20,000 nucleotides of DNA from an uncultured virus (IMG/VR IMGVR_UViG_3300044617_001027). Lineage: Duplodnaviria; Heunggongvirae; Uroviricota; Caudoviricetes. The notes below the pieces were generated by a model that saw only the letters and a list, made by a program, of their open reading frames with translations, had not been told where the DNA came from and searched no databases. Of the stretch, positions 2,422-20,000 are shown one piece after another. The DNA lies in IMG/VR virus record IMGVR_UViG_3300044617_001027. One strand, written 5' to 3'. Both the position numbers and the translations under genes were made by a program. The stretch's first letter is position 1; each line of letters starts with the position of its first letter.

Positions 2422-2441
2422 ATCTAATTATTGAAGTAATT

Positions 2442-4694: not shown

Positions 4695-5818
4695 TATTTA
4701 CTAACTTTAAAATATATAGAATCATCAATTGTTTTTTCAATGTCTCCTCCATCCATCTTCACTTTAATTAGAACTTTATAATATCGATTAGGAAGGAATG
4801 TATTAAAATCTAATTTGAAATAATTTCCTTTATTGTCACAACTTATTACATTTCTATCATCAAATGGAACAACATACATAGATGTTTGTTCATCTTGTAT
4901 TGCATAATAAGAAGATGTTGGTAATCTTTTACTTGACATGTAATTTGATGATGTAGAATATGTCTTAACTGGGATTCTATCTCTTACTAAGAATCTAAAC
5001 TTTGTTTTATCTGTTGGGTAGTAAGATGCTTTTTTATTTTTGAAATGTAGAATGAAATCTTCGTTTGGTACTTGAGAGAATAAGGATGTTCCTGAAAAGT
5101 CTGTATCATTCCATACAATGTCTAATCTTGGAATGAATATAGTATTAGTTTCCCTGCTGAAAAATTTAATAGATCCCATTACTTCACAACTTTTCTCATC
5201 GCTGTCACTTCTTTTTAAGATAAGACCATTATTCGGAATGGAGCCTGAAATCCATTTATGAACAATTCTAGTGATATCCATTCTTAAATCCGGACTTTCT
5301 TGATCAAAAGATTGCGACGCTACGAAACCACTTTGATGATACCACGTACCACCTCCCTTTTGTGTTACGTATGAGCCGGTAGTTCCTGCGACAAATGAAC
5401 CGGAAGTCCACCGTTTACCTGTCATATTAAAAGAGCCATTTCTATAAGTCCATGAAACACCCTCTTTAATTTGAGGAGAAGAGTTGTAGTATCCTTTTCC
5501 TTGACTCCAAGATTCGCTAACAGGATATGCGTATAAAGAGTAAGTCAAAGCTAAATTATCGGCCTGTGCTGAAAATAAATTTAAATAGTATTTGCTTGAC
5601 TTTCCAATAGTTCCATTCTGAATTAATTTATTTATTTCGTTAGAATCTATTTGGAGTAATATCCTAGAATTATAATTGTAATTATAGAAAATATCATTAG
5701 CATCTGCAACATTATGAGATATCTTTTCTAACTCTATTATTGAATCTAAACCTGAATTTAAATCAGGTTTCCCTTCATATATAGTGGCGTCTCTTATTGG
5801 ATATACTGAATACTGCAT
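4694..5818 (-). CDS. DNRLRE/disaggregatase-like beta-sandwich domain virion protein (374 aa)
   Basis: Pattern DATIYEG.P..N.G ... SRILLQ ... YLNL ... DIT.IV..W.SG...NNGLIL ... F.SRE....PRL.I.W is typical of DNRLRE-type domains. Lies directly after the gp6-like gene. Confidence 0.6.
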   Translation of the reverse strand: MQYSVYPIRDATIYEGKPDLNSGLDSIIELEKISHNVADANDIFYNYNYNSRILLQIDSNEINKLIQNGTIGKSSKYYLNLFSAQADNLALTYSLYAYPVSESWSQGKGYYNSSPQIKEGVSWTYRNGSFNMTGKRWTSGSFVAGTTGSYVTQKGGGTWYHQSGFVASQSFDQESPDLRMDITRIVHKWISGSIPNNGLILKRSDSDEKSCEVMGSIKFFSRETNTIFIPRLDIVWNDTDFSGTSLFSQVPNEDFILHFKNKKASYYPTDKTKFRFLVRDRIPVKTYSTSSNYMSSKRLPTSSYYAIQDEQTSMYVVPFDDRNVISCDNKGNYFKLDFNTFLPNRYYKVLIKVKMDGGDIEKTIDDSIYFKVSK

Positions 5819-5819
5819 T

Positions 5820-7706
5820 TTATGTCAAATTTACTACTCTTCCTAATATGTCTCTGTTCTTATACTTAACTTCAAAAATTGAAGGATCTAATGCGGGGTA
5901 TAATATATTATTCCTAGTTGCTGTAGCTATATCATAGTAATTACCGGAATATCCTTCATCCTCCTTGTATTTATTATGTATATCAAATGCTAGTATATTT
6001 TTCACTCCCTGTACATCTTTGATTAAGCACATAACTTCACTTATATAAATAGGTTGACCTATCTGCATTTTATCATTAGAAAAGTAATCTCTAAGATTAG
6101 ATAAGCATTGTAAAAGAACTTCATTTGAATTATATGTAGCGGATGTTAATATTTCAAAACTTATAGCTATGTTTATAATAAAAGCATCTCTTATATTTAT
6201 AGCGTCAGTTAACATCCTGTATTGTAATAGATAATTTTTAAGATTCATTTTTACTGCCATATTTAAAGGGCTAAAGTTCTTATTATTATCGTATCCTAAT
6301 AAATACAAATTAAGTGATAATGGATTTGGAATAAAATCAAATGTTCCATAAGCTCTAGTTTGAGCATCCCTTTCAATGTGAGCTTTAGCTACTGCTCCAA
6401 ACTTCGGAGGCAAAGTGTAACATCTGACCATGTAGTCATCTTTTGTTACTGCTCTGTTCTGAGAAGCAAAGTGATTTATAGCTTCTTCTCTTAATGTTTC
6501 TATTGGTTTATCTGATATACCTCCTCTAGCTGGTTCCGGATTGTTTATGACAAGGGAACCTATAGATGCATTATATAAAGTCGAGTCTAAAGCACCTAAA
6601 GGAGTTAGTACGTTTATTGATGATATAGTAGTTATTGAGTTTGCTGAAACGTTATCCGGAATACCGCCTCCGATGGCGTATTGTACTGTAAGAGTGGTGT
6701 TAGAAGGAGCTGACCCGTAAGTTTTTGTGTATAAAAAATTTTCCGGGGATATACTTAAATCAACAACTCTTTCAAAATAATTTAATCCAGACCCTACATT
6801 AAAAGGATTAGGAACAATTTCTTCATCGACTTCACTGCTAACGCCACCTCCAAATTGTATTTCAGTTCTATCATCTAATCTAAGCCTAGTTACAAATCTT
6901 CTTTCTGTTTGTAAATAAGTTAATAAGTAAGGTGCAGAATCTCTGTATTGCGACAAATTTTGGTCGTTATGCGGTAAATTTTGTACAGGAATTGGTATGG
7001 TATCTTGAGCTAAATAAGGCACTTCATACCACTTATTTCCATCTGAATCTGTTACGCTTAATATTTCAAGAACATTATTTTCAGGTAAGGTGATTTTATC
7101 ATAAGGTTTAGGTGCTGCAAAACTAAACTGTCTTGATAAAATAGTTCCAGATACTGCTTTTACTTTTTTCCTAAATAGATAATTTTCTACTTCTCCTGCA
7201 TTATCAATAGAATAAACAGATATTTCGGTAGGGTCTAAAGAAGAACTGTACCTAAAATCGACAGATTCAATTGTTCTAAATGTTATATTTTCTCCACTTG
7301 TAGCTACTAAACTAGAATCTATAGATAAAGCATACTTGAAATCAGGTTTGTTATTAGGTCCATTTCCGGTAGAAGGAACTACTTGATAGATATCTAAATC
7401 TACTGATGCTCCTGTTATTAAAGATGGCTTAAATCCTAAAGAGTTAGCAATATTGTATAAATTTATTTTTTCTTGTACAGTGGATAATAATGATTCTCTT
7501 AACTGAATATCAGTGTAAAATGATAGAACATCTCCTACATAAGAAGCTAGTTCTATAAACATCATACCTGGAGAGGCTTCATTAAAATCATTATATGTAT
7601 CAGGAAAGTAATTTTTAGAAAAATCTATTAAAGATTGTCTGAATTCTCCAAAATCTTTATTTACATATTTTACATCCTTACTAATTAAATTACTTCTTTT
7701 ACTCAT
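5820..7706 (-). CDS. Baseplate wedge subunit, T4 gp6 / Baseplate J-like (628 aa)
   Basis: N-terminal KDF..FRQSLI...KNYFP..YNDF.E.SPGMMFIEL.SYVGDVLSFY.D...ES.L; later FGGG, A.GG...E.LRE.A...F.SQNRAVT..DY, all hallmark gp6/BplJ motifs. Adjacent to gp25. Confidence 0.9.
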   Translation of the reverse strand: MSKRSNLISKDVKYVNKDFGEFRQSLIDFSKNYFPDTYNDFNEASPGMMFIELASYVGDVLSFYTDIQLRESLLSTVQEKINLYNIANSLGFKPSLITGASVDLDIYQVVPSTGNGPNNKPDFKYALSIDSSLVATSGENITFRTIESVDFRYSSSLDPTEISVYSIDNAGEVENYLFRKKVKAVSGTILSRQFSFAAPKPYDKITLPENNVLEILSVTDSDGNKWYEVPYLAQDTIPIPVQNLPHNDQNLSQYRDSAPYLLTYLQTERRFVTRLRLDDRTEIQFGGGVSSEVDEEIVPNPFNVGSGLNYFERVVDLSISPENFLYTKTYGSAPSNTTLTVQYAIGGGIPDNVSANSITTISSINVLTPLGALDSTLYNASIGSLVINNPEPARGGISDKPIETLREEAINHFASQNRAVTKDDYMVRCYTLPPKFGAVAKAHIERDAQTRAYGTFDFIPNPLSLNLYLLGYDNNKNFSPLNMAVKMNLKNYLLQYRMLTDAINIRDAFIINIAISFEILTSATYNSNEVLLQCLSNLRDYFSNDKMQIGQPIYISEVMCLIKDVQGVKNILAFDIHNKYKEDEGYSGNYYDIATATRNNILYPALDPSIFEVKYKNRDILGRVVNLT

Positions 7707-7708
7707 TT

Positions 7709-8221
7709 TTATAATATTTCAGCGGCTAAATCATTACCCGAATTATAGATTACTACTGTTCTATTGGCGCCTCGTTCTGTAACAGAAAATGTTATTCTCA
7801 CATTAACTGAATTTTCTTGCTCTGAATACCCGTAGTTTTGATTACCTCCAATACCTACACTTAAATCTTTAAGAACTATATAAGGAAGCCAAAATCCTAT
7901 ATCTTCCTCTAGTGAAGACTCTAAAAAACCTCTATTAAACGAACTGTTTTGCTCAAAAACAAAATCTCTGAGAATTGTTCCAAAATTAGGTTGCATATAT
8001 CGCTCACTTTTTCTAGTCATTAGTAAATTTATTAAATTACTAATTGCTTGCTCTTCGGTAGTGTAGGATAGTTTAAAAGGTCCTACATCTCTTGATGGTT
8101 TTTTGTTGTAAGCTTCTAAAGCACTTTTAACAAATGTATTTCTATTAAAAGGTAATAAAATTCCAACGGCTTTGTCTAATTTCGTATCAGGCGGATATGC
8201 CTTGTATATTATTCTAGCCAT
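7709..8221 (-). CDS. Baseplate protein gp25/GPW-like (sheath initiator) (170 aa)
   Basis: NLINLLMT.K.ERYMQPNFGT.L...VFE ... I..WLPYI.L matches the GPW_gp25 family pattern. Confidence 0.9.
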   Translation of the reverse strand: MARIIYKAYPPDTKLDKAVGILLPFNRNTFVKSALEAYNKKPSRDVGPFKLSYTTEEQAISNLINLLMTRKSERYMQPNFGTILRDFVFEQNSSFNRGFLESSLEEDIGFWLPYIVLKDLSVGIGGNQNYGYSEQENSVNVRITFSVTERGANRTVVIYNSGNDLAAEIL

Positions 8222-8619
8222 TATTTTATTTTTTCTGCTTTTTTCAATATCGGTGTATAATTTCTAGAAAGTAATTTACTCATTAGATTACCTCCTTCTG
8301 ATGAAGGTAATACAACTTTTCCATCCATATCAACTAAAGGTTCGTGTGAATAGTTAGATATACTCATATTTTCAGTAGTTACTGAAGGACCATAATCCAT
8401 ATCCGAACTGTTAAAAGGCGTAGTTCCTGATAGAAGAGAGTCTAAAGAACTATTAGATTTAATTGGTCTTTGTTCTCTAGTATAAGTATTTTCTACTACC
8501 TTGCTTGTATTTTTACTATTTAAATTATTAAATTCTTCTCTAATTATAGATTTTATCTCCTTTTTTAATTCTTGAGATATTTCTTTTACTAAGTATTTTA
8601 TAAGTGAATTCTTTTCCAT
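8221..8619 (-). CDS. Hypothetical phage protein (132 aa)
   Basis: Intact ORF translationally coupled to gp25 (TAATG overlap at 8221). N-terminal helical 'IKSIIREE' segment and C-terminal 'RNYTPILKK'. Confidence 0.7.
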   Translation of the reverse strand: MEKNSLIKYLVKEISQELKKEIKSIIREEFNNLNSKNTSKVVENTYTREQRPIKSNSSLDSLLSGTTPFNSSDMDYGPSVTTENMSISNYSHEPLVDMDGKVVLPSSEGGNLMSKLLSRNYTPILKKAEKIK

Positions 8620-8652
8620 GTTTATAATAAATATTTAAACTGTATAATAAAT

Positions 8653-10671
8653 TTAAAAATTAACCTCTACTATTTTATTTAAGTCCACTAATTCGTGAGA
8701 TAAATGAGCGTAATTATCTTCGTATAAAGTAACTTCTAGTTCTTTTCTTATACAATCTGAATTAACTAATATCTTTTTTTCTACAAGCATTGATTCTTCT
8801 AGTATAAACAAGTTGGTTGAAAGTAATTTTTCTATATCTGTATTATACTTGAATTTATCTCCTACTATATACCAACCAGGTTTACAATTTTCTTTTATAA
8901 CTAATATCAAATAAACAACATCTGATACTATTGCTAAGGTTCTTTTACTTTTAAGAATAGAAACTATCTTAAATAAATGACCATAGCATTTACCATCAGG
9001 GTATATGAAATCTACCGGTATATTAATTAAATCAGTTTCCGGATTAAAAGGAGTACCGGGAAATCCAGGTCCACCCGGTCCGTTAGGTCCACCCGGTCCG
9101 CCGGGCTGTCCGGGAGCGCTATCCGGATTACCTGTTCCGGGTCCGCTAGGTCCTCCGGGTTCACTAGGTCCACTAGGATTTCCGGGAGTTCCAGGTGGTA
9201 TAGCTGTTCCTTCACCTTGAGGCGTATCGGGCAAATTAGCAGGAGAACCGTCCGGTTCCGTAGAGCTACCTGCGACTTCCGGAATAGGCTCTGTATTAGA
9301 ATTACTAGCACCTTCGGGAGTTCCCGGCGGTTTCATTTTGGGGAGAGCGTTGTTAGGATTAATAGAAAAACTAGGTAAGTCGACAGATGGATTACCTATT
9401 GAATTTGCAATAGAATCGGTACCTCCGGGCATATCAGGAGATGAGGTTATAGAACCTCCTGTTTTGCCATCCATTCCCGGTATGCTATTTGTAAAGCCTG
9501 TAGGAGCTACTCTAGATAATCCGTCAGTTCCTAATTTAAAATTTGTGGGTAATGAGGGAGGTTGTGGAAATCCTTGCGAACATCCCCCACCCCAAACACC
9601 TTTGCTAGGATTTAGAGTGTACTTAGGTCTTAATGATATAATACTAGGTAGTCGTGGGGAAACTAAAGAAGGCCCTCCAAGAGGTGATGTAGTTATACCT
9701 CCTGGTCCGGCTAATGCTTGTACTTCGCTATGTAAGCCTAAAACAAAATCTACAAGGTCATCAAAATCTACATCATGTTTATCTGTAGTTAGTCGTATTT
9801 TTGAAGCAGATAAATACATTGTTTTTTTTGCAATCAACATCATATTATCCGTCTTTGCTTGCATTACAATTCTATCCGCATTTGTAGCTGATTGAGCTTT
9901 AGTGGAACTTGGAATACTAGACAAAGGCGAAGGACATGCTCTAACCGAAACAAATCTTGATAAAGCTTGGTCAGAAGTCCAATAAGTAGTAGAGAAATCA
10001 TTAGCTGCGTCTTCTATGGCATAGGATAATGAATCTTTTATTTCTCTATTTGGTATATCTTTTACTTCATTGGGTAATGGTTTACTCGGTCCTACAGGTT
10101 TATTAGCCACTATAGTTATTGGATTTCCTGCTTTTCCTGATTTCCATGTGGGTTGAACCTCATGTTGTGGATGAGGACCCGAACCTATACCTAATCTTAT
10201 CGAAGACCCGCCTCTACCAGTGAAAGTAGTGTCACCTTCAAAGGGTTGCATAAAGTTGGCAGTATATGGTCTCTTAGGGAAAGTATTTCCAGGAGTAACA
10301 AAAGGAGGTGCCGGTTTATTATCAGATGACTTAGATCTATTAGAAGCGTGAGGTATTTGATTTATTACAGAATCATTAGTTGAATTAATAGGTAGAGGAA
10401 TATAGTATAGTACTTTATCTAAATTTGGAGCATCTGTACCATCATATCCAGTAAGCTCAAAAACAACTACATGTTCTCCTCGTAAAGGTATATTTCTAAA
10501 GTTAGTGAATAAAGGTCTAGCATAGTGAGCGCGAACATTACCTATTAAAGAATTGGGATGTAATTTAATTTTTACAGAGCCTAATGGAAGTGTTCTACCT
10601 TTTTCATCTTTTTGATTTTTACCATACGCCTTAGAGGTCTCTATCACTTCCGCCGATACTAAATAGCCCAT
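8653..10671 (-). CDS. Baseplate central spike/hub, gp5/GpV-like, with Pro/Gly-rich linker and extra C-terminal domain (672 aa)
   Basis: N-terminal OB-fold-like pattern (LGSVKIK...ARP......P..GE.V.V), EGD....GR.GSSIRLG, and beta-helix-like repeats ([31 protein letters not shown]). Located upstream of gp25/gp6. Confidence 0.65.
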
Positions 10672-11083
10672 CTTCTAATTGTTTATCTATGTCTTGAAAT
10701 TCATCTAATAAGTTATCTTCCGCTTTTTGTAGCATCTTTAATTCAGTCAACTCCTTTTGCGTTTCTTGAGATAACTCTTGAAGTAGCATTTCTTTTTCTT
10801 CTTCTGTTAAGTTAAAATCGCCACTTGAAATAGATGCTGCTTTACTATACATTCTTTGTACAATAGCTGCCATTTTTATAAGTTGATCGTCATTTTTAAC
10901 CATCACATCAAAAAATTCTTTAACAACCGGTAGAATAACTACTGCATCATTTACACTTTGTACAACTCCATCTAATCCTTTTAATGTCTTATCTAATTCT
11001 TTTGATCTTTTTTTAGAATTGCCATAAATTTCTTTCAAGAGATTTGACATGCTAAAATCATCAAATAATTTTATATCTTCCAT
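10631..11083 (-). CDS. Hypothetical helical phage protein (150 aa)
   Basis: Intact ORF starting 1 nt after the sigma gene's stop and overlapping the spike gene by 41 bp. Contains P..KE..DV.VKNDDQL.KMA.IVQR and 'LTEEEKEMLL'. Confidence 0.75.
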   Translation of the reverse strand: MEDIKLFDDFSMSNLLKEIYGNSKKRSKELDKTLKGLDGVVQSVNDAVVILPVVKEFFDVMVKNDDQLIKMAAIVQRMYSKAASISSGDFNLTEEEKEMLLQELSQETQKELTELKMLQKAEDNLLDEFQDIDKQLEDGLFSIGGSDRDL

Positions 11084-11084
11084 A

Positions 11085-11765
11085 TTATTTCTTCATGTAT
11101 TTATTAAATTGCAAATCAAAATCTTCTTTAAATATTTTTACTATCTTAGTGATTCTGTTTGTATTTGTCATGGGAATATTGGATCTTTCTCTTATTAATA
11201 CATATAATGCTTTCTTATTAAATGCGTATAAAGATTTTCGATGCTTAAAAATGTCAATGATAGAATCTGCTATGGCTTTATCTAAATTATTTTTAAAAGT
11301 GCATCTTAATTTTTCATATAATTCTTCGGTCCATAAATTCATAAAGTCATCTAAAGAATCTTTATAATGTCTAGTGACTACTTCATTTATTATATCTCTT
11401 TCTTCATCTATTTCCCACAATTCCGCTTCTCCGACTCTATTCTTATACCCTTTCTTATTTTCCATGATAAGATAATTTATAGCAATCCGGGTAAAAAAAG
11501 AATACGCTTTAGCCCTTTCTTCATTATATCTGTGCATTTTTATAGTCAGCATGGAAACTACTTGACAATGTAAATCCTCATACGGTAAATCAATGTACAT
11601 ATATTTACCCATGTTTATTAAATTCTCAGCTAGTTTACAAAATGCAGGATATATATTTAATTCGTATAAGTTATTTTTTTCTTTTTGTGAATCTAGTTTA
11701 TTATATTCTACTATTGCATTTTGTACTGTGTCATCAAAGTACATTTTTTTCTTTAATTTTTTCAT
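11085..11765 (-). CDS. Phage RNA polymerase sigma factor, T4 gp55-like late sigma
   Basis: YF......AIVEYN...IY.AF.KLAEN.I ... EDL ... RYN.ER.KAYSFFT.IA.NYLI resembles sigma region 2 of gp55-type factors. Start moved to ATG 11765 because the ORF-track start (11789) lies inside the hairpin. Confidence 0.7.
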   Translation of the reverse strand: MKKLKKKMYFDDTVQNAIVEYNKLDSQKEKNNLYELNIYPAFCKLAENLINMGKYMYIDLPYEDLHCQVVSMLTIKMHRYNEERAKAYSFFTRIAINYLIMENKKGYKNRVGEAELWEIDEERDIINEVVTRHYKDSLDDFMNLWTEELYEKLRCTFKNNLDKAIADSIIDIFKHRKSLYAFNKKALYVLIRERSNIPMTNTNRITKIVKIFKEDFDLQFNKYMKK

Positions 11766-11776
11766 ATTATATCTAT

Positions 11777-11807
11777 AAAAAAAAGCCATCTTAAAAGATG
11801 ACTTTTT
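11777..11807 (-). terminator. Rho-independent terminator-like hairpin
   Basis: Minus strand AAAAAGTCATCT-TTTA-AGATGGCTTTTTTTT: stem with one G-U pair followed by a U8 tract, 6 nt after the TAG stop at 11814. Confidence 0.7.
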
Positions 11808-11813
11808 GTGTTA

Positions 11814-12116
11814 CTACTTCTTATCTGCTGTAAAAAGTAAATCTAGTTCCTCTATTGTATGACTTAATTGCTTAAATACTGTTCCAACTTCATCGTCTGA
11901 TTCAAATGCACCTATTCTATCTAAGGTTCTCATTGTGTCTAGCGAATCTCTTACTCTTGATCTTATGGATAGTATTATATTAAAGTAATTATCATTTTCT
12001 TTTTCTAAATCATTTAAGTATTTCTCTGACTCAATTAGTAATTTTTCATTTTTAGAGAAGTTTACTATGGCTATGTATAAAAGTATTATGTTTATTATTA
12101 TTGATAGTATTAGCAT
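11814..12116 (-). CDS. Small membrane-anchored coiled-coil protein (~100 aa)
   Basis: Hydrophobic N-terminus MLILSIIINIILLYIAIV, then a heptad-rich region and 'D..GAFESDDEVG.VF..L'. Start at ATG 12116 avoids overlap with the upstream gene. Confidence 0.7.
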   Translation of the reverse strand: MLILSIIINIILLYIAIVNFSKNEKLLIESEKYLNDLEKENDNYFNIILSIRSRVRDSLDTMRTLDRIGAFESDDEVGTVFKQLSHTIEELDLLFTADKK

Positions 12117-12126
12117 GTTTTGTTTT

Positions 12127-12726
12127 TTATGAAGAAACCATTTGTCTTGCTGCATCTGTAGATGCCATGATGATAGATCCTAAAGTTACTTTTTTTGTTT
12201 CTGGGATTTGTAAATATTTGGATGCTGAATCATCGTATAGCCCCGCTTGAATTTTTATTGCCACGTATTCATTGTATGATAAAGTCACATATTTTTGAAG
12301 TAAGTATAGGGATTTATCAGAAGCTACTAAGAATTTAGCTGCATCGTTAAATTTATATCCTCTGTTTAGATTTTTTTTATGCCAGTCAGAAGTTTCCTCT
12401 ACAAAGAAAGGGTCTTCGTCTACTCCGCACAACCCGATAGAATTAAACAATGAAGCTACCGTAAATTCCTCTAAATTAAAATCTAATGCAATGTCGGTAG
12501 ACTTATACAATTTACAAAGACCTAATCCAAAATTATAGGTATTAATTGAAAACTGCAACAATCCTCCTTCGTAACAATAGTTATTGTCTAAAAACATTGA
12601 AGCAGGAGCGCTTTTTAATGTAGTTTCATAGTCTGCTAGTAACTTTAGGAAGTTTTCTTTTCTTCCGCCGGCTACGCGTAAATCTAATAAATCTGTAAAT
12701 TCTTTAAACAATTCTTCCGATTTCAT
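12127..12726 (-). CDS. HD-domain (YhaM-like phage family) protein with degenerate catalytic motifs (199 aa)
   Basis: Scaffold motifs APAS......YEGGL, ASLF..IG..G, W.....G.YKFN, DKSLYLL and E.VAI....GLYD are recognisable, but the expected His/Asp ligands are replaced. Confidence 0.65.
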   Translation of the reverse strand: MKSEELFKEFTDLLDLRVAGGRKENFLKLLADYETTLKSAPASMFLDNNYCYEGGLLQFSINTYNFGLGLCKLYKSTDIALDFNLEEFTVASLFNSIGLCGVDEDPFFVEETSDWHKKNLNRGYKFNDAAKFLVASDKSLYLLQKYVTLSYNEYVAIKIQAGLYDDSASKYLQIPETKKVTLGSIIMASTDAARQMVSS

Positions 12727-12808
12727 AAAACTTTTTTTTGTGTAACAATTTATTATAAGATTTTGTTTATTTCATTCCACTCTTTTATCTGAGCTGGAGA
12801 CATGTTTC

Positions 12809-14314
12809 TTAGCTCCGATTCAGAAAGTTTTTTTTTACATTAGCTTTAGGCTCTCTATAATTTCTACTTTTTGATTTATTTATAGAAGGTATTATTATAA
12901 TTTCTTCTTCCGGTTCTCCTGAAGATATATCGTAATCTTCATCTATTGCCTCAAATGTAATATCTTCTACTACATCTGATTCTATTTCTTCTTGTGTAAT
13001 GTTTTCAAAACTTCCGGTAACTACTTCTTCTAATCTAACTTGTTCTGCAAGTGCTGTATCGGAATATGAGTAAACTTCATTAAAAGATCCTTTTACTATG
13101 GTCATATCTTCAAATTCATTAATAGACTCTATACTATTATTTTTTACTTTATTCTTACTTCCTGTAGGTCTTCCTCTTCTTTTTGGTTTTAGGAATGCCT
13201 TCATTGACCTCGACCATGAAAAATCACCTTGGAAGTTATTTGGATTTGTAGGAACTATTGAACCTAATGTCGGTTCTTCAATAGAACTTGTAAAATCTGA
13301 AAAAGAACTAGTGAATTTTACCTTTTCATTAAAATCATCAATATACTTTGTATCTTCTTTTGTCAAATCATCCGAGTAAAATTCTGCTAAAGGGCTTCTC
13401 TCTTTCGGTTTTTCTGGAATAGGATTCTCTTCAATATTATCAGAATCTTTTTCATCTTCTTCTAGTATTACTTTTTGTGTGAAATGATAGGCGGTTAAAA
13501 GAGCAATAGCCAAGGGGTCCGCTAAAAATACAATAACCATTAGAAACCAAAATAGTACCTTGTCTAAACTTGTATTAGTAACTTCGGAAAGGTAAATTAG
13601 AGGACCAAGTTCTACAGCTACTTCATTACTTGATTTTATTTCTATAATCTTTGTTTCGTAGCTAAATATAGAATCGGAAATGTTTGTGATGTCCACATAT
13701 ACTCCGTCTCTTCTGCTCTCCATTTTTCCAATGTCAGAGTTAAGACCTTCTACTTGTTGTAAATAATCCTTTCTTGTGGATGCATTTGATTTTGATGATG
13801 TCCTTCCTCTGCTATCTACATAAACATCTTTTGAATCACTCATCATTCCAGAGGATGTTGTGTTCCTTTGCAATCTTGTTTGAGCAATGTCAGAAATAAT
13901 TTGCTTATATTCATTTTGCAGATCATTCTTTTTATCGATGAAGAATTTCTTTTTCTCTTCAACTAATGCAACTTCCGATTTAGATGCCATGAGCTTATTC
14001 TTATTCTCGGTATATGCTTGAGAAAGAATGCCATAGACTCCGGAAGATGTTACAAAGATGACAAGGAATAAGAAAATTAATCCCCCCACTTTATATCCTA
14101 ATGTTAGTTTATGCCAGTATCTATGAAGGAATGATGCGATGACAAGTTTTGATATTTCTATTCCGGCGCCTAAAAGAATTATTGCCATGCCTGCTCCGGC
14201 GAAAACTTGGGCTAATCCTTTTACAGAGAAAAAACCTACAACGGAAGCTAGGAAAATAGCGCAGGTTAAAAGAAGATAAGATATTCTTTTTTGTGTTTTT
14301 AAGTCTTTGGTCAT
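12809..14314 (-). CDS. Multi-pass membrane protein with coiled coil, acidic tail and AT-hook (~501 aa)
   Basis: Three N-terminal hydrophobic segments, a long coiled coil, a fourth TM region (VLFWFLMVIVFLADPLAIALL), then an acidic low-complexity tail with KPKRRGRPTGSKNK. ATG 14314 preferred over TTG 14353 because a promoter lies between them. Confidence 0.8.
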   Translation of the reverse strand: MTKDLKTQKRISYLLLTCAIFLASVVGFFSVKGLAQVFAGAGMAIILLGAGIEISKLVIASFLHRYWHKLTLGYKVGGLIFLFLVIFVTSSGVYGILSQAYTENKNKLMASKSEVALVEEKKKFFIDKKNDLQNEYKQIISDIAQTRLQRNTTSSGMMSDSKDVYVDSRGRTSSKSNASTRKDYLQQVEGLNSDIGKMESRRDGVYVDITNISDSIFSYETKIIEIKSSNEVAVELGPLIYLSEVTNTSLDKVLFWFLMVIVFLADPLAIALLTAYHFTQKVILEEDEKDSDNIEENPIPEKPKERSPLAEFYSDDLTKEDTKYIDDFNEKVKFTSSFSDFTSSIEEPTLGSIVPTNPNNFQGDFSWSRSMKAFLKPKRRGRPTGSKNKVKNNSIESINEFEDMTIVKGSFNEVYSYSDTALAEQVRLEEVVTGSFENITQEEIESDVVEDITFEAIDEDYDISSGEPEEEIIIIPSINKSKSRNYREPKANVKKNFLNRS

Positions 14315-14327
14315 GTTATTTTTTTTA

Positions 14328-14358
14328 CAAAGGTAGTCAATTTTTTTGAACAATCAAC
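14328..14358 (-). promoter_or_regulatory. Bacteroidota housekeeping-sigma promoter (-33 TTG / -7 TAnnTTTG)
   Basis: Minus strand GTTG-N19-TACCTTTG, 13 nt upstream of ATG 14314. Matches the Bacteroides/Flavobacterium consensus TTTG-N19-21-TAnnTTTG. Confidence 0.65.
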
Positions 14359-14380
14359 TTTTTTTGCATTTTTTTTTAGT

Positions 14381-14749
14381 ATCTACATGTTTTTACATGA
14401 ATGCTATGTAATATAAAGAAAACAATTACATATATAATTATGTTAGATTTGCATGTTATTGATGTTATCATTTTGTTTTAAAGATATAAAAGAGCATTAA
14501 ACATGAATATACATTTAGACATGGTGCATGTTAACATAATTTTTTTGACAATGGTTGACTGTTGATGTATAATCATGAAATTTTAACATTTTATTAACAT
14601 GTAGATTTTTGGAGGGGATGCTAAAAACAAAATCATACCCCCCAGTAAAATAAAAAAAAATTAAAAAAGACATGTAAAATCTATTTATAGTAAAACATGT
14701 AACAAACATTTATTGATAATTGATTATAAATTAAAACACATTACACATT
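14381..14749. repeat. AT-rich divergent intergenic region with dense ACAT/ATGT motifs and ACATGT palindromes
   Basis: About 20 ACAT/ATGT sites counted by eye; perfect ACATGT at 14385, 14597, 14670 and 14695; 11-bp inverted repeat atctacatgtt (14381) / aacatgtagat (14596). Confidence 0.6.
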
Positions 14750-15109
14750 ATGACAACAATGATAAAAGCATTATCAGATTTTGAACACATGGGCCACATG
14801 GTATATCTAAAAAAGATATTCCCGGAAGCATTCTTTAAAATAAAATCATTTACAGTACATTTTAAAGAGAAAGAAAATTTAATACCCGTAGGAGGAGACG
14901 ATGGAGAGGTTAGAGCAGAAATAACATTATGTCCATCTATAAAATGTCAATTCTACATTTATGCGAATAAAGATGTTTTTGACAATAAGGGAAACGCCCT
15001 GGTACCGTACCTTATAGATTTGGATGTAGATGAGAACAATGATGTAGAAGATTTGTTAGATAAACTAAAACAAATGCTACAGGATGAATTTAAAGAAAAA
15101 ATTGAATGA
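14750..15109 (+). CDS. Hypothetical protein (119 aa)
   Basis: First ORF after the strand switch; ATG in A-rich context; no recognisable motif. Confidence 0.7.
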   Translation: MTTMIKALSDFEHMGHMVYLKKIFPEAFFKIKSFTVHFKEKENLIPVGGDDGEVRAEITLCPSIKCQFYIYANKDVFDNKGNALVPYLIDLDVDENNDVEDLLDKLKQMLQDEFKEKIE

Positions 15110-15122
15110 CACATTATCTTTC

Positions 15123-15644
15123 ATGTCGGAGCATGATAGAGTATTGTTTCTTTACAACAACATCTTACTAAAAAATCCCGACGAAAATTTTGATTTAAAT
15201 AGGGAGACATTTAACATGCTATTTTCTGCTGATCCCGAGAATTCTGACATTTTTGACAACATGTCGGGAGATGCCACTGAAGCAGATGACTTTTTTACAT
15301 TCTTAGACGACAATGAGGAGTCTTTTGATGCTTTCTCTTACTCTGATGAAGAACTAGATGGTTTTTTAGATGGGATTGATGATGAATTAGATTATATAGA
15401 GTCCGAAGATGATGTACAAGTAGAAGTTTTAGTACATGGAAACATCTTGGTTTTGTTTTCCAATTCCGAAGATGACATAAATTCATATATCTATAATTAC
15501 TGCTTTTTAGAAGGGTATATTTTCACAAAGATAGCTGATTCTGAAGTAAAAAACATAAAGTCTTTTGATGTAGTAACCGGATACAAGCATAAAACAGTTT
15601 TAAAAGTACACGGAAAATTAGAAGATGATATATGTTACAATTAA
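15123..15644 (+). CDS. Highly acidic hypothetical protein (~173 aa)
   Basis: About 43 D/E versus about 10 K/R residues by hand count. Start placed at ATG 15123 (MSEHD) to avoid overlap; the ORF track starts at 15084. Confidence 0.7.
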   Translation: MSEHDRVLFLYNNILLKNPDENFDLNRETFNMLFSADPENSDIFDNMSGDATEADDFFTFLDDNEESFDAFSYSDEELDGFLDGIDDELDYIESEDDVQVEVLVHGNILVLFSNSEDDINSYIYNYCFLEGYIFTKIADSEVKNIKSFDVVTGYKHKTVLKVHGKLEDDICYN

Positions 15645-15656
15645 TTTAACATAAAA

Positions 15657-15672
15657 TGGCATATAATTTGAA
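15657..15672 (+). promoter_or_regulatory. Possible sigma-54-type (-24/-12) promoter
   Basis: TGGCATATAATTTGAA: TGGCA with GG-N10-GA spacing (consensus TGGCAC-N5-TTGC), about 45 nt upstream of ATG 15717. Confidence 0.35.
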
Positions 15673-15716
15673 CATCTCAATATAGTTATTATTAGTTAAC
15701 TCTTAAAATTAATAAA

Positions 15717-16097
15717 ATGGCAAATTTTGATGATTTAGGTTACGACGAAGTGGTAGACACTATCTGCGACGTAATTGACTTAGGAAAAAATGTAAAAAAC
15801 GTATTTGCTGACGGATTCCAAGTAATTCCTGATCTTATCGCGTTGACTCCTGAATTCTTTAAAGTTCAAGAGATTATTTCTGACGCTCCCTTGGCAATCA
15901 ACCAACTTAAAAATTTGAGTGTGGAAGAAGCTAAAAAGGCACACGCAGAAATTTCAAAACGTACAGGTGTAGCTCAAGACAAAGTAGTTGATACAGTTAC
16001 TAAGGGCTTCGGCATTGTAGTAGAATTGTATGAAGTATTCGCTTGGAATCAGGCGAAGTTCTATGCAATCAAGACAAAAATACAGGACTTAGCTTAA
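15717..16097 (+). CDS. Hypothetical helical protein (126 aa), apparently its own transcription unit
   Basis: Intact ORF followed by a strong terminator. Frequent GAC/ATC/TTC/AAC codons, unlike its neighbours. Confidence 0.8.
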   Translation: MANFDDLGYDEVVDTICDVIDLGKNVKNVFADGFQVIPDLIALTPEFFKVQEIISDAPLAINQLKNLSVEEAKKAHAEISKRTGVAQDKVVDTVTKGFGIVVELYEVFAWNQAKFYAIKTKIQDLA

Positions 16098-16115
16098 CCT
16101 AACGACTAACTTTAC

Positions 16116-16146
16116 GCCCCGCTAAAAAAATTTGGCGGGGCTTTTT
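16116..16146 (+). terminator. Rho-independent terminator
   Basis: GCCCCGCTAAA-AAAA-TTTGGCGGGGC followed by TTTTT, 18 nt after the stop at 16097. Confidence 0.85.
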
Positions 16147-16185
16147 AATTAATACATTATGCAATATTTATACTAAAGGTTAATC

Positions 16186-17322
16186 ATGCTAATTTACAGG
16201 CCTACTATTATTTCTGGTTCGGGATATTACTCCGGGTCTTTTGATGGAGACGGGTCTAGGTTATATAACATACCATCATCTTCCTACGCTATAACTGCCT
16301 CCTATGCTTTAAATGGAGGAACCGGAGGTGGTGAAAAAGGTGATAAAGGAGAAATGGGAGATTCTGTTTTTACCTCCTCTTTACAAGGAGTATTAGTAAC
16401 AGTTAATCACAATTTAGATTTAGAATATCCTGTTTACAATATTTATGATAATTTAGGAAAAGAGGTAATACCTAAGGAATTTACCATAATTAATCCAAAT
16501 TCCGTACAAGTAAATTTCGGCATACCATTTACCGGCTCTATAAGTATTTCCGCTGGTCAACAAGGTTTTAAAGGACAAAAAGGGAGTAAAGGAGAAGTTG
16601 GTGTCAAGGGAAATAAAGGAGAGTTAGGAGAAGCTGTTTATAGTTCATCTATTCAAGGCACTGTTATTTCTGTGGCTCATAATTTAGATATTCAATATCC
16701 TGTTTTTACTATTTATGATAATTTAGGAGATAATATAATACCTAAATCTTTTTCTGTTATAAATGATAATACCGTTGAAGTTGATTTCGGTATTGGATTT
16801 ACTGGCTCTATAAGCATTGCAAGCGGTATAAAAGGGCAAAAAGGAGAACCTTACAATGGATCTGTAATATATGAGAGCGGTAGTAAAATAGGTATAGGCA
16901 TTCCAAATCCTACATTTCAATTACAATTATCTACAAATAGTGCAGGTAAACCAACTGGAGGATCTTGGTCGGATTCTTCGGATATAAGGTTAAAGACAGA
17001 TATAAAAGACATAGATAATCCACTACATATATTAAAAAAAATAAGAGGAGTTACTTTTAGATGGAAAGATGGTTTACGAGATGATTGTAACTCCGGAGGT
17101 TTTATAGCAGATGAATTAGAGAATGTATTCCCCTCTTGGGTCACAATACAAGAGTCTTCTGAGAAAGAAAAACTGTATATAGAAGACAATAAAGTAAAAA
17201 CTATCTCGCTACCCTTTTATTTTGATGCTATTATAGTTGAATCAATAAAAAAACAGCAAGAAGAAATAGAAATGCTAAAAACTAGTATTTTAGAATTAGA
17301 ACTACTTATTAAAAATACATAA
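16186..17322 (+). CDS. Tail/appendage fibre protein with short GXK collagen segments, two repeated beta domains and a C-terminal peptidase S74 intramolecular chaperone (378 aa)
   Basis: SDIRLKTDI...L..IRGVTFRW....GFIA.ELE.VFP.WV...+ terminal coiled coil is the S74 pattern. A duplicated ~76-aa unit (16330-16557 and 16600-16827) carries V.HNL...YP...IYD......IP.......N.V.V.F...FTG. Confidence 0.85.
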   Translation: MLIYRPTIISGSGYYSGSFDGDGSRLYNIPSSSYAITASYALNGGTGGGEKGDKGEMGDSVFTSSLQGVLVTVNHNLDLEYPVYNIYDNLGKEVIPKEFTIINPNSVQVNFGIPFTGSISISAGQQGFKGQKGSKGEVGVKGNKGELGEAVYSSSIQGTVISVAHNLDIQYPVFTIYDNLGDNIIPKSFSVINDNTVEVDFGIGFTGSISIASGIKGQKGEPYNGSVIYESGSKIGIGIPNPTFQLQLSTNSAGKPTGGSWSDSSDIRLKTDIKDIDNPLHILKKIRGVTFRWKDGLRDDCNSGGFIADELENVFPSWVTIQESSEKEKLYIEDNKVKTISLPFYFDAIIVESIKKQQEEIEMLKTSILELELLIKNT

Positions 17323-17327
17323 TTATA

Positions 17328-17681
17328 ATGAGGATACTATTCCCTACAATATTTTCTGGTTCTGGGTATTTTTCTGGTTCTTTTGATGGAAACGGGTCAA
17401 GACTTAAGGGTATATTGACATCTTCTATTGTTAATTTTAATCAAAACATAAAGAAAATAACTTTCCCTTACGCGGGTAAAGCTCAAGTAACAGGTTCACT
17501 AATTATAAAAGGATCTACTACAAGTTCAGCGGATTTTTTTTTAATACAATCAGGATCTTTTAATTCCGTAAAAGTTAATAATAAAGGAGTATTACAATTA
17601 GGTTCTTATGCTACAAAACCATCTGCTAGTGAAGGAGGAATTATATATAGCGATTATAGTTATTGGATTGGTTTAAATTAA
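17328..17681 (+). CDS. Small fibre-associated virion protein (117 aa)
   Basis: N-terminus (PTIFSGSGYFSGSFDGNGSRL) is paralogous to that of the upstream fibre; C-terminal P....GG..Y.....W.G is a fibre-like motif. Confidence 0.65.
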   Translation: MRILFPTIFSGSGYFSGSFDGNGSRLKGILTSSIVNFNQNIKKITFPYAGKAQVTGSLIIKGSTTSSADFFLIQSGSFNSVKVNNKGVLQLGSYATKPSASEGGIIYSDYSYWIGLN

Positions 17682-17728
17682 TATTAATCAATAACCTATT
17701 TATATAAAAGAAACTTAAAAAAAATGAA

Positions 17729-18667
17729 ATGGCAACTTGGAAAAAAATACTAGTTAGTGGATCTAGCGCACATGTATCAGCTGTAACGGCATCAAATCTT
17801 ACAGATACTAATATATTAATGTCCGGACCCGGTGGAAGGATAAAAAATACAGGATTTACTTATGGTTCCGGCAAACTTAACCTAGGAAATACTATCGTTT
17901 CCGGGTCTATTTTTTCTGGTTCTTTTGTTGGAAATGGTTCGGGATTAACAGGACTTGTAACTTCTTTGAAAATAAGCGGATCTACAGGTAATGATGTATT
18001 AGATTTAAAGGTAGATAAACTATCTGTATTAGGAGGCACAACTCCTATTACAACTACCGTAACAGATAATACCGTAACTATAAATATCGCTAATGCTGCT
18101 GCCGATGGAACAACAAAAGGTTTAGCTACTTTTGATACAGATGATTTTGATGCTAGTAGCGGATTAATAACTCTTGGCAATTCTGCCAATGGTGCTGTAC
18201 TACAAGTTTCAGGTACATTAAGCGAAATTGATATAACTAGAAGTAATGGTTTAGTTACCGTTGGTCTCCCTAATGATGTCGTTATAACTAATGATTTAAC
18301 TGTAGGAGGAGACTTGGTTGTAAATGGAGATTTGACGTACCTTAATGTAGCTAACCTAGCTGTTGAGGATGCTTTTATACTACTTAAATCCGGATCATCA
18401 ACCGTAGGAGATTCAGGTATTATTTTTGGAGGTAGTACAGGTATAGCCCAGAGTGGTTCTGCTTTAGTATGGGATGGTAGTTATAATACAAATGATGGTC
18501 GATTGTCTGTAGTAGGAAATCTAGGAGCTAATACAACCGGAACTGTTTCACCTTCTTATTATGTTGCTGGAGTTTATGAGGGTTCCGAAATTAATGCGGC
18601 AACAAATAAAGCAGACCATCCAGGAAATATAAGAATAGATAATTCAGAAATTTTTATATATGTTTAA
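17729..18667 (+). CDS. Fibre-like virion structural protein (312 aa)
   Basis: G/S/T-rich; MATWKKILVSGS N-terminus; SGSF.GNGSGLTGL; 'DLTVGGDLVVNGD......NL.VED..I.L' beta-repeat typical of large-phage fibre proteins. Confidence 0.65.
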   Translation: MATWKKILVSGSSAHVSAVTASNLTDTNILMSGPGGRIKNTGFTYGSGKLNLGNTIVSGSIFSGSFVGNGSGLTGLVTSLKISGSTGNDVLDLKVDKLSVLGGTTPITTTVTDNTVTINIANAAADGTTKGLATFDTDDFDASSGLITLGNSANGAVLQVSGTLSEIDITRSNGLVTVGLPNDVVITNDLTVGGDLVVNGDLTYLNVANLAVEDAFILLKSGSSTVGDSGIIFGGSTGIAQSGSALVWDGSYNTNDGRLSVVGNLGANTTGTVSPSYYVAGVYEGSEINAATNKADHPGNIRIDNSEIFIYV

Positions 18668-18677
18668 AAAATTAGTA

Positions 18678-18905
18678 ATGGGTATTATTCAAAAAGTTTC
18701 AAACAGAACAAAAGAAATTAATTCTTCTTATGATTTATCTAAAAAAATTAATTCTACAGTATCTTTAACGACAAGAGAAGTAGAGTTTATTTTAACTACA
18801 TTAGGAGAATCTAGTATGCAAATAAAACAAATAGACTTTGTTTATAGTTTAATATTAAAATTACAAAGTTATTACGAAGAATTAAAAAATAATAATGTAA
18901 AATAA
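18678..18905 (+). CDS. Small hypothetical protein (~75 aa), possible fibre assembly helper
   Basis: ORF between two fibre genes; helical C-terminus LT..EVEFIL..L......IDFVYSLILKLQ. Start at ATG 18678 avoids the overlap of the ORF-track start at 18660. Function inferred from position only. Confidence 0.6.
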   Translation: MGIIQKVSNRTKEINSSYDLSKKINSTVSLTTREVEFILTTLGESSMQIKQIDFVYSLILKLQSYYEELKNNNVK

Positions 18906-18913
18906 TTATAAAA

Positions 18914-18971
18914 TTTATTATTGGCCCTATGGGGAAGTGGGCTTCGAATAGAAGTAACCAACCATAATAAA
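18914..18971 (+). ncRNA. Candidate structured cis-regulatory RNA (three-way junction) in the leader of the collagen fibre gene
   Basis: About 50% GC core in an AT-rich spacer; nested stems TTTATTAT(T)GG/CCATAATAAA, CCC/GGG and TGG-GCTTC/GAAGT-AA-CCA; no U tract. Confidence 0.4.
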
Positions 18972-18981
18972 ACATAAATAA

Positions 18982-20000
18982 ATGCCAAACTGGAAAAAAG
19001 TTTTAGTTAGTGGCTCAAACGCAGAGCTTAATAGATTAAATATATCTACATCATTTACAGCAAGTGGTTTATTATACCCTACATCAGATGGAATTTCTGG
19101 ACAAGTTTTAGGAACTGATGGTTTAGGTAATTTATCATTTAGTAATGTAACAATAGCCCAGGTAAGTACTGTAGCTGCATCTTTTTCCGCTACCTCATCT
19201 ATAACAGTACCTCATAATTTCAATTCTAAAAATGTAATAGTATCGGCTTATGATAATTCTGATTTTTATTTTGTTCCCGAAACTATAAATTTACTTGATA
19301 ATAATAGAGTAAAATTAACATTCTCTAACCCATCTACAGGACATGTTGTAGTGGCTAAGGGAGGTCATATAGTTAGTGCAAGTATGCAAGGAAACCAAGG
19401 ACTTGTAGGCCCACAAGGATTTCAAGGACTTAGAGGTTTTCAAGGTTTTCAAGGTTTCCAAGGTATTCAAGGTATTCAAGGCCCTATAAGAGAAGTTAGC
19501 GAGGTATCCACAGTATCTGCATCTTTTTCCGCTACCTCTTCCATAACAGTAACACACAATTTTAATTCAAAAAGTGTCGTTGTTTCTGCTTATGATGCTT
19601 CTGATTTTTACTTCGTACCTAACCAAATTAAATTACTAGACAATAATAGAGTAAAACTATCTTTTACTAGCCCATCAACAGGATATGTAGTTGTAGCAAA
19701 AGGAGGACATATTGTTAGTGGTAGTTTATATATAGCCGGCCCACAAGGTCTACAAGGCACTACAGGAGCTCAAGGCTCACAAGGAAATCAAGGTATTCAA
19801 GGTATTCAAGGAACCAACGGAACAGTAGGCACACAGGGTTTTCAAGGCAATCAAGGCCCGCAGGGTAATCAAGGACCGCAAGGTAATCAGGGAATACAGG
19901 GCATACAAGGTACAGTAGGTACTCAAGGTTTCCAAGGCAATCAAGGACCACAGGGAAATCAAGGTCCGACAGGAGTACAAGGAACTAACGGAACGGTAGG
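18982..20000 (+). CDS. Collagen-like (GXQ) tail/appendage fibre protein; partial, continues past the right edge
   Basis: Not in the ORF track. Translated by hand: MPNWKKVLVSGSNAELNRL...YPTSDG.SGQVL.TDG.GNLSF..., two ~74-aa repeats (19162-19383 and 19504-19725; ITV.HNFNSK.V.VSAYD..DFYFVP..I.LLDNNRVKL.F..PSTG.VVVAKGGH) separated by GXQ triplets, then continuous GXQ/GXX triplets from 19738 to the end. Confidence 0.85.
   Translation, partial: MPNWKKVLVSGSNAELNRLNISTSFTASGLLYPTSDGISGQVLGTDGLGNLSFSNVTIAQVSTVAASFSATSSITVPHNFNSKNVIVSAYDNSDFYFVPETINLLDNNRVKLTFSNPSTGHVVVAKGGHIVSASMQGNQGLVGPQGFQGLRGFQGFQGFQGIQGIQGPIREVSEVSTVSASFSATSSITVTHNFNSKSVVVSAYDASDFYFVPNQIKLLDNNRVKLSFTSPSTGYVVVAKGGHIVSGSLYIAGPQGLQGTTGAQGSQGNQGIQGIQGTNGTVGTQGFQGNQGPQGNQGPQGNQGIQGIQGTVGTQGFQGNQGPQGNQGPTGVQGTNGTV

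Follow-up and report, generated by a model that had tools for sequence, protein, structure and literature searches.

Inactive domains of the HD type are already known. HDOD domains, for instance, are non-catalytic members of the HD superfamily. A further example is RelA, for which the accessible part of one report describes an inactive hydrolase domain (PMC13376610). Among solved structures, the closest in fold to the protein studied here is the HD domain of YhaM, a 3'-5' exonuclease of Bacillus and Staphylococcus (PDB 9h3f and 9o7t), and in the portion of the source available a B. subtilis YhaM mutant with both residues of the catalytic dyad exchanged (H193A/D194A) is inactive and dimeric rather than hexameric (PMC12107432). 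Homologous phage proteins are gathered in the family phrog_28876, which comprises gp150 of Flavobacterium phage immuto, gp21 and gp18 of the Streptococcus phages Dp-1 and MS1, and a protein of Clostridium phage Saumur. No biochemical characterization of members of this phage 'metal-dependent phosphohydrolase' family was found in the literature, and the accessible part of the immuto paper, which deals with 7-deazaguanine, makes no mention of the HD gene (PMC10516641). From a different side, the available part of a report on phage T4 describes that gp43, gp55, and gp33 bind the sliding clamp by means of a hydrophobic-acidic peptide at the C-terminus, which comes after a divergent linker (PMC2988020). 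Our literature search found nothing on a phage YhaM-like HD protein devoid of ligands, or on a cassette joining an HD gene to a sigma-like gene, and it is such a protein, within such a cassette, that we describe in this study.

The window, namely the whole stretch of 20,000 nucleotides that was analysed, is a portion of a 37.6-kb record of an uncultured virus with an estimated completeness of 22%. Positions 1–19951 are placed on the contig, the last 49 (19952–20000) being N or off the record. The window is AT-rich (GC about 27–44%), and its myovirus genes code for baseplate and tail-fibre proteins, with wedge proteins of the gp6 and gp25 types, fibres that are collagen-like, and a chaperone domain of the S74 type. 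On the minus strand the genes run in the order 514-aa membrane protein, HD-like protein, small membrane protein, 234-aa, 150-aa acidic, 672-aa, and 132-aa proteins, gp25-like, and gp6-like (Table 1). The HD-like ORF runs from ATG to TAA, and its minus-strand orientation had been absent from the first-pass annotation of this DNA, which had quoted five peptides as altered HD motifs (APASMFLDNN, GGLLQFS, SLFNSIGLCG, AIKIQAGLY, and IIMAST). All of them are found in the translation, as is the sole histidine, within DWHKK, and the description of the flanking ORFs as membrane proteins agrees with hydropathy, which gives one hydrophobic segment in the downstream neighbour and four in the upstream one. 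A-rich leaders without a Shine-Dalgarno-like sequence precede both the HD gene (12727–12760) and the small membrane-protein gene (12117–12126). Leaders of this kind are typical of Bacteroidota, which would fit a kinship to the Flavobacterium phage. Two collagen-repeat tail-fibre proteins (16186–17322 and 18982–19998, both on the plus strand), one of which ends in the S74 intramolecular chaperone domain, are transcribed in the direction opposite to the cassette, diverging from it. As a candidate T4-type late promoter, the word TATAAATA was rejected, since it is not enriched in the window (8 occurrences versus 6.3 expected).

Table 1. Coordinates of the HD-like gene and of its neighbours in the window.
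Feature	Position	Strand	Basis or remark
Baseplate wedge genes, gp6-like (5820–7706) and gp25-like (7709–8221), end of the conserved block	5820..8221	-	phrog_219/phrog_6; PF04965 GPW_gp25
672-aa protein, between the 150-aa gene and the baseplate genes	8653–10671	-	No family assignment
Acidic 150-aa protein	10631..11083	-	Kept after the sigma-like gene; in immuto, 39% identity
Sigma-factor-like protein, 234 aa	11085..11789	-	ESM Atlas; weak Foldseek/Pfam
Small single-pass membrane protein with coiled-coil-like C-terminal part	11814..12155	-	113 aa as listed
Ligand-less YhaM-like HD-fold protein, 199 aa	12127..12726	-	ORF and translation; AF2 model; YhaM match; ligand columns; dN/dS
514-aa membrane protein upstream of the HD gene, outside the conserved cassette	12809..14353	-	Four hydrophobic segments

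A number of searches place the 199-aa protein in the HD superfamily, in the vicinity of YhaM. The AlphaFold (AF2) model, obtained on an alignment of 133 relatives found by phmmer with a query that is itself ligand-less (alignment A2), reaches a pLDDT of 96.2 and a pTM of 0.92. Its best Foldseek match in the PDB is YhaM (9h3f_A, E 8.8e-4, TM 0.68), and VIA-align superimposes 170 of the 199 residues on the same protein (Z 17.2, rmsd 2.8 Å), the entries that come after it being all HD-type domains, from Z 9.8 down; the structure matches of the model in the PDB are HD proteins throughout. At the level of sequence, the protein matches the PHROGs entry phrog_28876, 'metal-dependent phosphohydrolase', at E 1.8e-6, an exhaustive phmmer search yields 384 cluster representatives at E ≤ 1e-3 (121 at E ≤ 1e-10), and a PDB search with the A2 profile finds the HD domain of YhaM (9o7t, E 1.4e-5; 9h3f, E 2.5e-5). 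PHROGs, profile, Foldseek, and VIA-align thus all agree with the HD fold claimed in the first-pass annotation, which had named a Foldseek search of a model against HD domains as one way to verify it.

Within the HD superfamily, the phage family forms a divergent branch that is YhaM-like and made of the HD domain alone. Single-sequence searches with the 199-aa protein give no match in the PDB or in Pfam (E ≤ 10), the gathering threshold of Pfam HD (PF01966) included, so that its homology is visible only via PHROGs, exhaustive phmmer, and the family profile. Even the ligand-intact relatives stay under the threshold of Pfam HD, with 16.8–19.7 bits for a cut-off of 22 in five of the 15 tested, and three of the 15 have sub-threshold scores against TraI_2; it is these low scores that mark the family as divergent. 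A search for longer or fused relatives, weak evidence in itself, found none, and the longer representatives P0080 and P0036 carry no additional Pfam domain.

The metal site of this scaffold has disappeared from the window protein. In the annotated orthologue used for the comparison, the 'phosphohydrolase' of phage immuto (30.6% identity, E 1e-16), residues H54, H64, H100, D101, H166, D167, H196, and D199 align to N49, F59, N95, S96, Q160, A161, M187, and T190. Accordingly read over the family, the seven core ligand columns (H,H,HD,D,H..D) appear as N,F,NS,A,M..T, the H...HD...D motif of the HD superfamily is absent, and the column of the YhaM catalytic dyad (H193/D194 in B. subtilis) is N95-S96. 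Among the 133 rows of A2 the ligands occupy their columns in the following numbers: H 97, H 104, H 110, D 99, H 65, D 86, H 87, and D 90. The lysine of HDxGK is found in 120 of the 133, and Leu99 takes its place in the window protein. It is the sole loss among the 11 near-invariant non-ligand columns of the family, the other ten (P41, G54, G55, G98, G101, W115, N127, E153, I157, and G162) being kept. The motifs which the first-pass annotation had given as expected agree with the consensus of the 133 relatives (APAS..H..FPGGY..H, AL.HDLGK.G, AI.L.DG.Y, and H.AD), and the loss of all apparent metal ligands that it had deduced from them is borne out by the alignment with phage homologues, both in immuto and in the A2 columns.

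A relative with 61% identity, P0003, is a second ligand-less protein and is likewise intact; its ligand columns read N,Q,S,S,Q,T,T,L, and its own locus was not found in IMG/VR, where the matches belong to the window clade only. Three of the eight ex-ligand positions are identical between the window subclade and the P0003 subclade, versus 61% identity overall, which speaks against the fixation of a new pocket chemistry at the old metal site.

Purifying selection on the ligand-less gene is as strong as on its intact orthologues and on the sigma-like gene. IMG/VR contains 19 full-length copies at 92–98% amino-acid identity, together with two edge fragments, and the 20 full-length copies, the window included, all have an open frame and no indels (11 distinct DNA sequences). 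The median dN/dS of the gene is 0.061 (Nei-Gojobori, 55 pairs, range 0.021–0.138, dS up to 1.15), to be compared with 0.070 for ligand-intact HD genes of other lineages (18 pairs, range 0–0.118) and, at similar divergence, with 0.053 for the sigma-like gene, 0.054 for the 150-aa gene, and 0.139 for the small membrane protein. The earlier remark that the ligands were lost without decay of the ORF is in keeping with these figures, and dN/dS, which had been put forward as its check, lies far below 1. Five related records, of which one is 82% complete, each contain exactly one match to the family profile, indicating that the ligand-less gene replaces the enzyme rather than accompanying it. An unrelated, canonical, ligand-intact HD protein of 177 aa, which falls in another HD family (27 bits to PF01966), is encoded about 36 kb from the ligand-less HD gene in one related record (G001; L031 1399–1932, minus strand), and is present in two relatives, including the 82%-complete record.

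Within a conserved cassette, the window gene occupies the position of its ligand-intact HD orthologues. By tblastn, phage immuto shares with the window the order HD gene, small protein, 234-aa protein (34% identity), and 150-aa protein, as well as the gp25-like and gp6-like genes. A wider view is given by 80 IMG/VR loci, of at least 593 matches, anchored on the HD gene and fetched with a 24-row ligand-intact alignment, which selects intact members. Of the 73 loci with enough downstream sequence, 66 have a co-oriented homologue of the 234-aa sigma-like protein 3' of the HD gene, with a median distance of about 0.5 kb; a homologue of the 150-aa protein, likewise co-oriented, follows in 63 of 70 eligible loci (tblastn). 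Further downstream in these 80 loci come the baseplate genes (gp25-like in 48, gp6-like in 45), and the small membrane protein, as far as tblastn detects it, follows the HD gene on the same strand in 33. A homologue of the 672-aa protein was seen by tblastn in 19 of 80 related loci.

In order to offset the bias towards intact ligands, a second sample of 80 IMG/VR loci, of at least 576 matches, was anchored on the 234-aa gene. An ORF of the HD family is found upstream of the sigma-like gene in 58 of its 60 eligible loci, and its 71 HD ORFs divide into 63 with intact ligands, four cut by contig ends, three of the window clade, and one further ligand-less case (L184). As a pair that follows the HD gene, those for the sigma-like and 150-aa proteins are deeply conserved. 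Two loci (L182 and L183) keep the small membrane protein and the sigma-like gene but lack the HD-family gene upstream, where short unrelated ORFs (189, 83, and 70 aa) stand instead (1500–5200 at L183); the role of the HD family is therefore not indispensable. Outside these samples, the Streptococcus phages Dp-1 and MS1 have a ligand-intact family member between the clamp-loader genes and an annotated sigma factor, and in Clostridium phage Saumur the family member adjoins a Holliday-junction resolvase.

The evidence that the 234-aa protein is sigma-like is modest. Its nearest clusters in the ESM Atlas are viral proteins named 'putative RNA polymerase sigma factor' (score 0.98), and the Foldseek list of its model (pLDDT 79.8) is headed by a SigH model, SigI6, WhiG, sigma-A, sigma-32, and sigma-E, with a best E of 0.23 and no match at E ≤ 1e-3. 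Pfam Sigma70_r2 is hit by five of 75 relatives, all at E ≥ 0.018, and the family profile finds no match in the PDB. In view of these weak results the name is kept at 'sigma-like' only. Many sigma-like homologues end in a conserved ...TGS[IF]F or ...GSFF, and the C-termini of the sigma-like/150-aa pair in the window are ...EDFDLQFNKYMKK and ...[14 protein letters not shown].

Pfam and PHROGs give no assignment for the 150-aa protein. The 672-aa protein contains a long Gly/Pro/Ser-rich low-complexity stretch with a local GC of 0.44, especially at 9000–10000. As for the small membrane protein, its true start is likely to be the ATG at 12116, which gives 100 aa and sets the gene 10 nt downstream of the HD gene; its single hydrophobic segment spans residues 15–33 by hydropathy, and its L183 homologue begins directly at this segment. 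The 514-aa membrane protein has no match in family searches.

Ligand loss recurs in the family, with at least one further case inside the cassette. Of the seven core ligands, six or more are kept in 84 rows of A2, three or fewer in 37, and 12 rows are partial (n = 133). This proportion comes from a list seeded with a ligand-less protein and over-represents such rows; in the sigma-anchored sample, four of 67 full-length HD ORFs are ligand-less. On a FastTree tree of A2 built without the ligand columns, in which many branches are weak, the ligand-less state needs 18–24 changes, at least six of which are imposed by branches supported at 95 or above, and two further ligand-less rows join the window clade with support 91. 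The independent in-cassette case, L184 2947–3738, matches the family profile at E 4e-80 and is placed 263 nt upstream of its own sigma-like gene; its ligand and lysine columns read N,H,C,Q,K,Q,E,H,I. The loci of three other ligand-less representatives (P0037, P0020, and P0034) were not found in IMG/VR.

A second variable trait of the family is its C-terminal tail. At least 30 residues follow the last ligand column in 56 of the 133 rows of A2, and 35 of these 56 carry a hydrophobic-x-x-[LIMF]-F motif, typically F-D-D/E-L-F, in their last 16 residues, where shuffling of the tails gives an expectation of 1.5 and never more than 7 in 1000 shuffles. Another six of the long-tailed rows end in a motif of the L-M-N-L-V-K-N-I type. 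The linker before the hydrophobic-acidic motif is divergent and mildly basic (e.g., P0007, P0011, P0017, P0020, P0033, P0038, and P0046). By ligand state, the tail motif is present in 26 of 39 ligand-intact rows and in five of 11 ligand-less rows. The window protein, which ends nine residues beyond the last ligand column, has no such tail. Tails are shorter in ligand-less members (median 14 versus 22.5 aa, Mann-Whitney p 0.0014), a comparison that ignores kinship and is not counted as evidence.

All together, these observations lead us to propose, with reasonable though not high confidence, that the encoded protein descends from a phage YhaM-like HD enzyme, no longer has catalytic activity, and is kept for a role that is independent of the metal centre. 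Such a pseudo-enzyme would most likely act by binding rather than by catalysis, and it may be a scaffold or a regulatory subunit, or bind nucleic-acid ends without cleaving them. The role retained might be a catalysis-independent function already common to the whole family in the cassette, and the phage's own transcription module would be its likeliest context, because the linkage of the HD gene to the sigma-like gene is near-obligate. This gene linkage, which does not show physical interaction, suggests a tie between the HD protein and the sigma-like factor, and our confidence in any particular partner is much less than in the general pseudo-enzyme reading. As regards the first-pass interpretation, its intact, selected, ligand-less pseudo-enzyme is retained on account of the fold and of a dN/dS of 0.06, and its two suggestions for what the protein does, a nucleotide sponge and an adaptor of both flanking membrane proteins, find no support.

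A more specific proposal, unlikely in our judgement, would make the whole phage HD family an accessory subunit of the phage sigma-like transcription module, many of its members being recruited via the clamp-binding-type C-terminal peptide, and the nuclease chemistry being dispensable and repeatedly discarded. If so, the window protein would represent a natural 'separation-of-function' allele, that is, an HD-fold co-factor of a viral sigma factor.

The sponge, an anti-defence binder whose emptied pocket would sequester a signalling nucleotide (cyclic oligonucleotide, (p)ppGpp, or dNTP) without hydrolysis, seems improbable to us. Such an activity would suit a fold that binds nucleotides and nucleic acids and whose pocket-forming scaffold is kept in the model, as well as the strong selection on a ligand-less gene. 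However, the gene is a positional orthologue within a core cassette, beside sigma-like and baseplate genes, and not part of a variable or accessory island, which counts against the idea; moreover, the ex-ligand positions differ between the two ligand-less subclades, with three of eight the same. The lysine of HDxGK, a residue that contacts phosphate, is lost, and no known sponge of the Tad1, Tad2, or Acb2 type appears in the Foldseek lists from BFVD or the PDB, which are filled by HD proteins and could therefore miss one.

We see an equally small chance that the HD-fold protein is an adaptor working with the small membrane protein, and perhaps with the 514-aa one, for example in lysis control or in superinfection exclusion. 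The 514-aa protein has a homologue in only three of the 80 HD-anchored loci, the small protein still accompanies the sigma-like gene at L183, a locus devoid of the HD gene, and the charge distribution of the small protein would put most of it outside the cytoplasm. What speaks for an adaptor is the tight packing of the genes and the co-conservation of the small membrane protein after the HD gene, in immuto too and in the 33 of 80 loci mentioned above, which leaves room for a link of the HD protein to this one neighbour.

There is likewise little to be expected from the idea that the protein is still an enzyme, in which other residues, e.g., D47, D165, and D166 with Mg2+, would support hydrolysis or other chemistry. 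These three acidic residues are still present in the window protein, so that its sequence would allow a Mg site of a non-HD type; D165 and D166 are conserved across the family and kept here, and the selection on the gene equals that on intact enzymes. Against it stand the loss of all histidine ligands, of the HD dyad, and of the lysine, with a single histidine left in the protein, and the inactivity of the equivalent YhaM dyad mutant in the available part of the report cited above (PMC12107432). The last alternative, a decaying gene whose ligand loss is a pseudogene in progress, would fit the complete loss of catalytic residues taken alone and is refuted, to a negligible residual probability, by the intact, indel-free frames of all 20 full-length copies, by a dN/dS of 0.06 with dS up to 1.15, by the equally intact P0003 relative, and by the very high confidence of the predicted model.

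Pseudo-enzymes point to second functions of enzyme folds. In this regard, a nuclease-type HD protein is found at a fixed place beside a sigma-like gene in at least several hundred contigs of uncultured aquatic myoviruses (at least 593 and at least 576 matches for the two anchors), and at least two lineages have shed the metal site with selection unrelaxed, which makes a catalysis-independent role directly testable. The cassette may thereby expose an overlooked component of phage late-gene control. Should the role be one of structural stabilization merely, the window protein would be an ordinary pseudo-enzyme; should the family prove to be a co-factor of the phage sigma factor, its significance would rise.

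The late-transcription set of T4 (gp55 sigma, gp33 co-activator, and gp45 clamp) offers one point of comparison. As in the cassette, a phage sigma-like gene stands beside small acidic proteins, and the tail of the HD family, with its divergent linker and hydrophobic-acidic peptide, resembles the T4 clamp-binding peptides, the window protein itself being tail-less. Unlike T4, which has the gp45 clamp, the five related phage records, two of them at least 96% complete, contain no clamp gene of the gp45 or beta type (PF02916, PF09116, PF00712, and PF02768), and T4 in turn has no HD protein in a late-transcription role. With the phrog_28876 proteins the kinship is direct, and immuto gp150 occupies the same genomic position as the window gene; in these proteins the H,H,HD,(H)D,H..D set is intact, whereas in the window protein it is not, and many relatives have the C-terminal linker and motif that it is without. 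YhaM shares with the phage family the motifs PAS..HH..GG...H and HDxGK at the profile level (E 1.4e-5), and its residues 107–283 align to residues 1–199 of the window protein, which is without the N-terminal OB domain of YhaM and has every metal ligand replaced. HDOD domains and the inactive hydrolase domain of RelA have no sequence kinship to the window protein detected by Pfam (E ≤ 10), and the latter is a stand-alone protein of the YhaM branch; in all of them the HD-type fold has likewise been kept after the loss of catalysis, in HDOD and RelA for regulation or binding.
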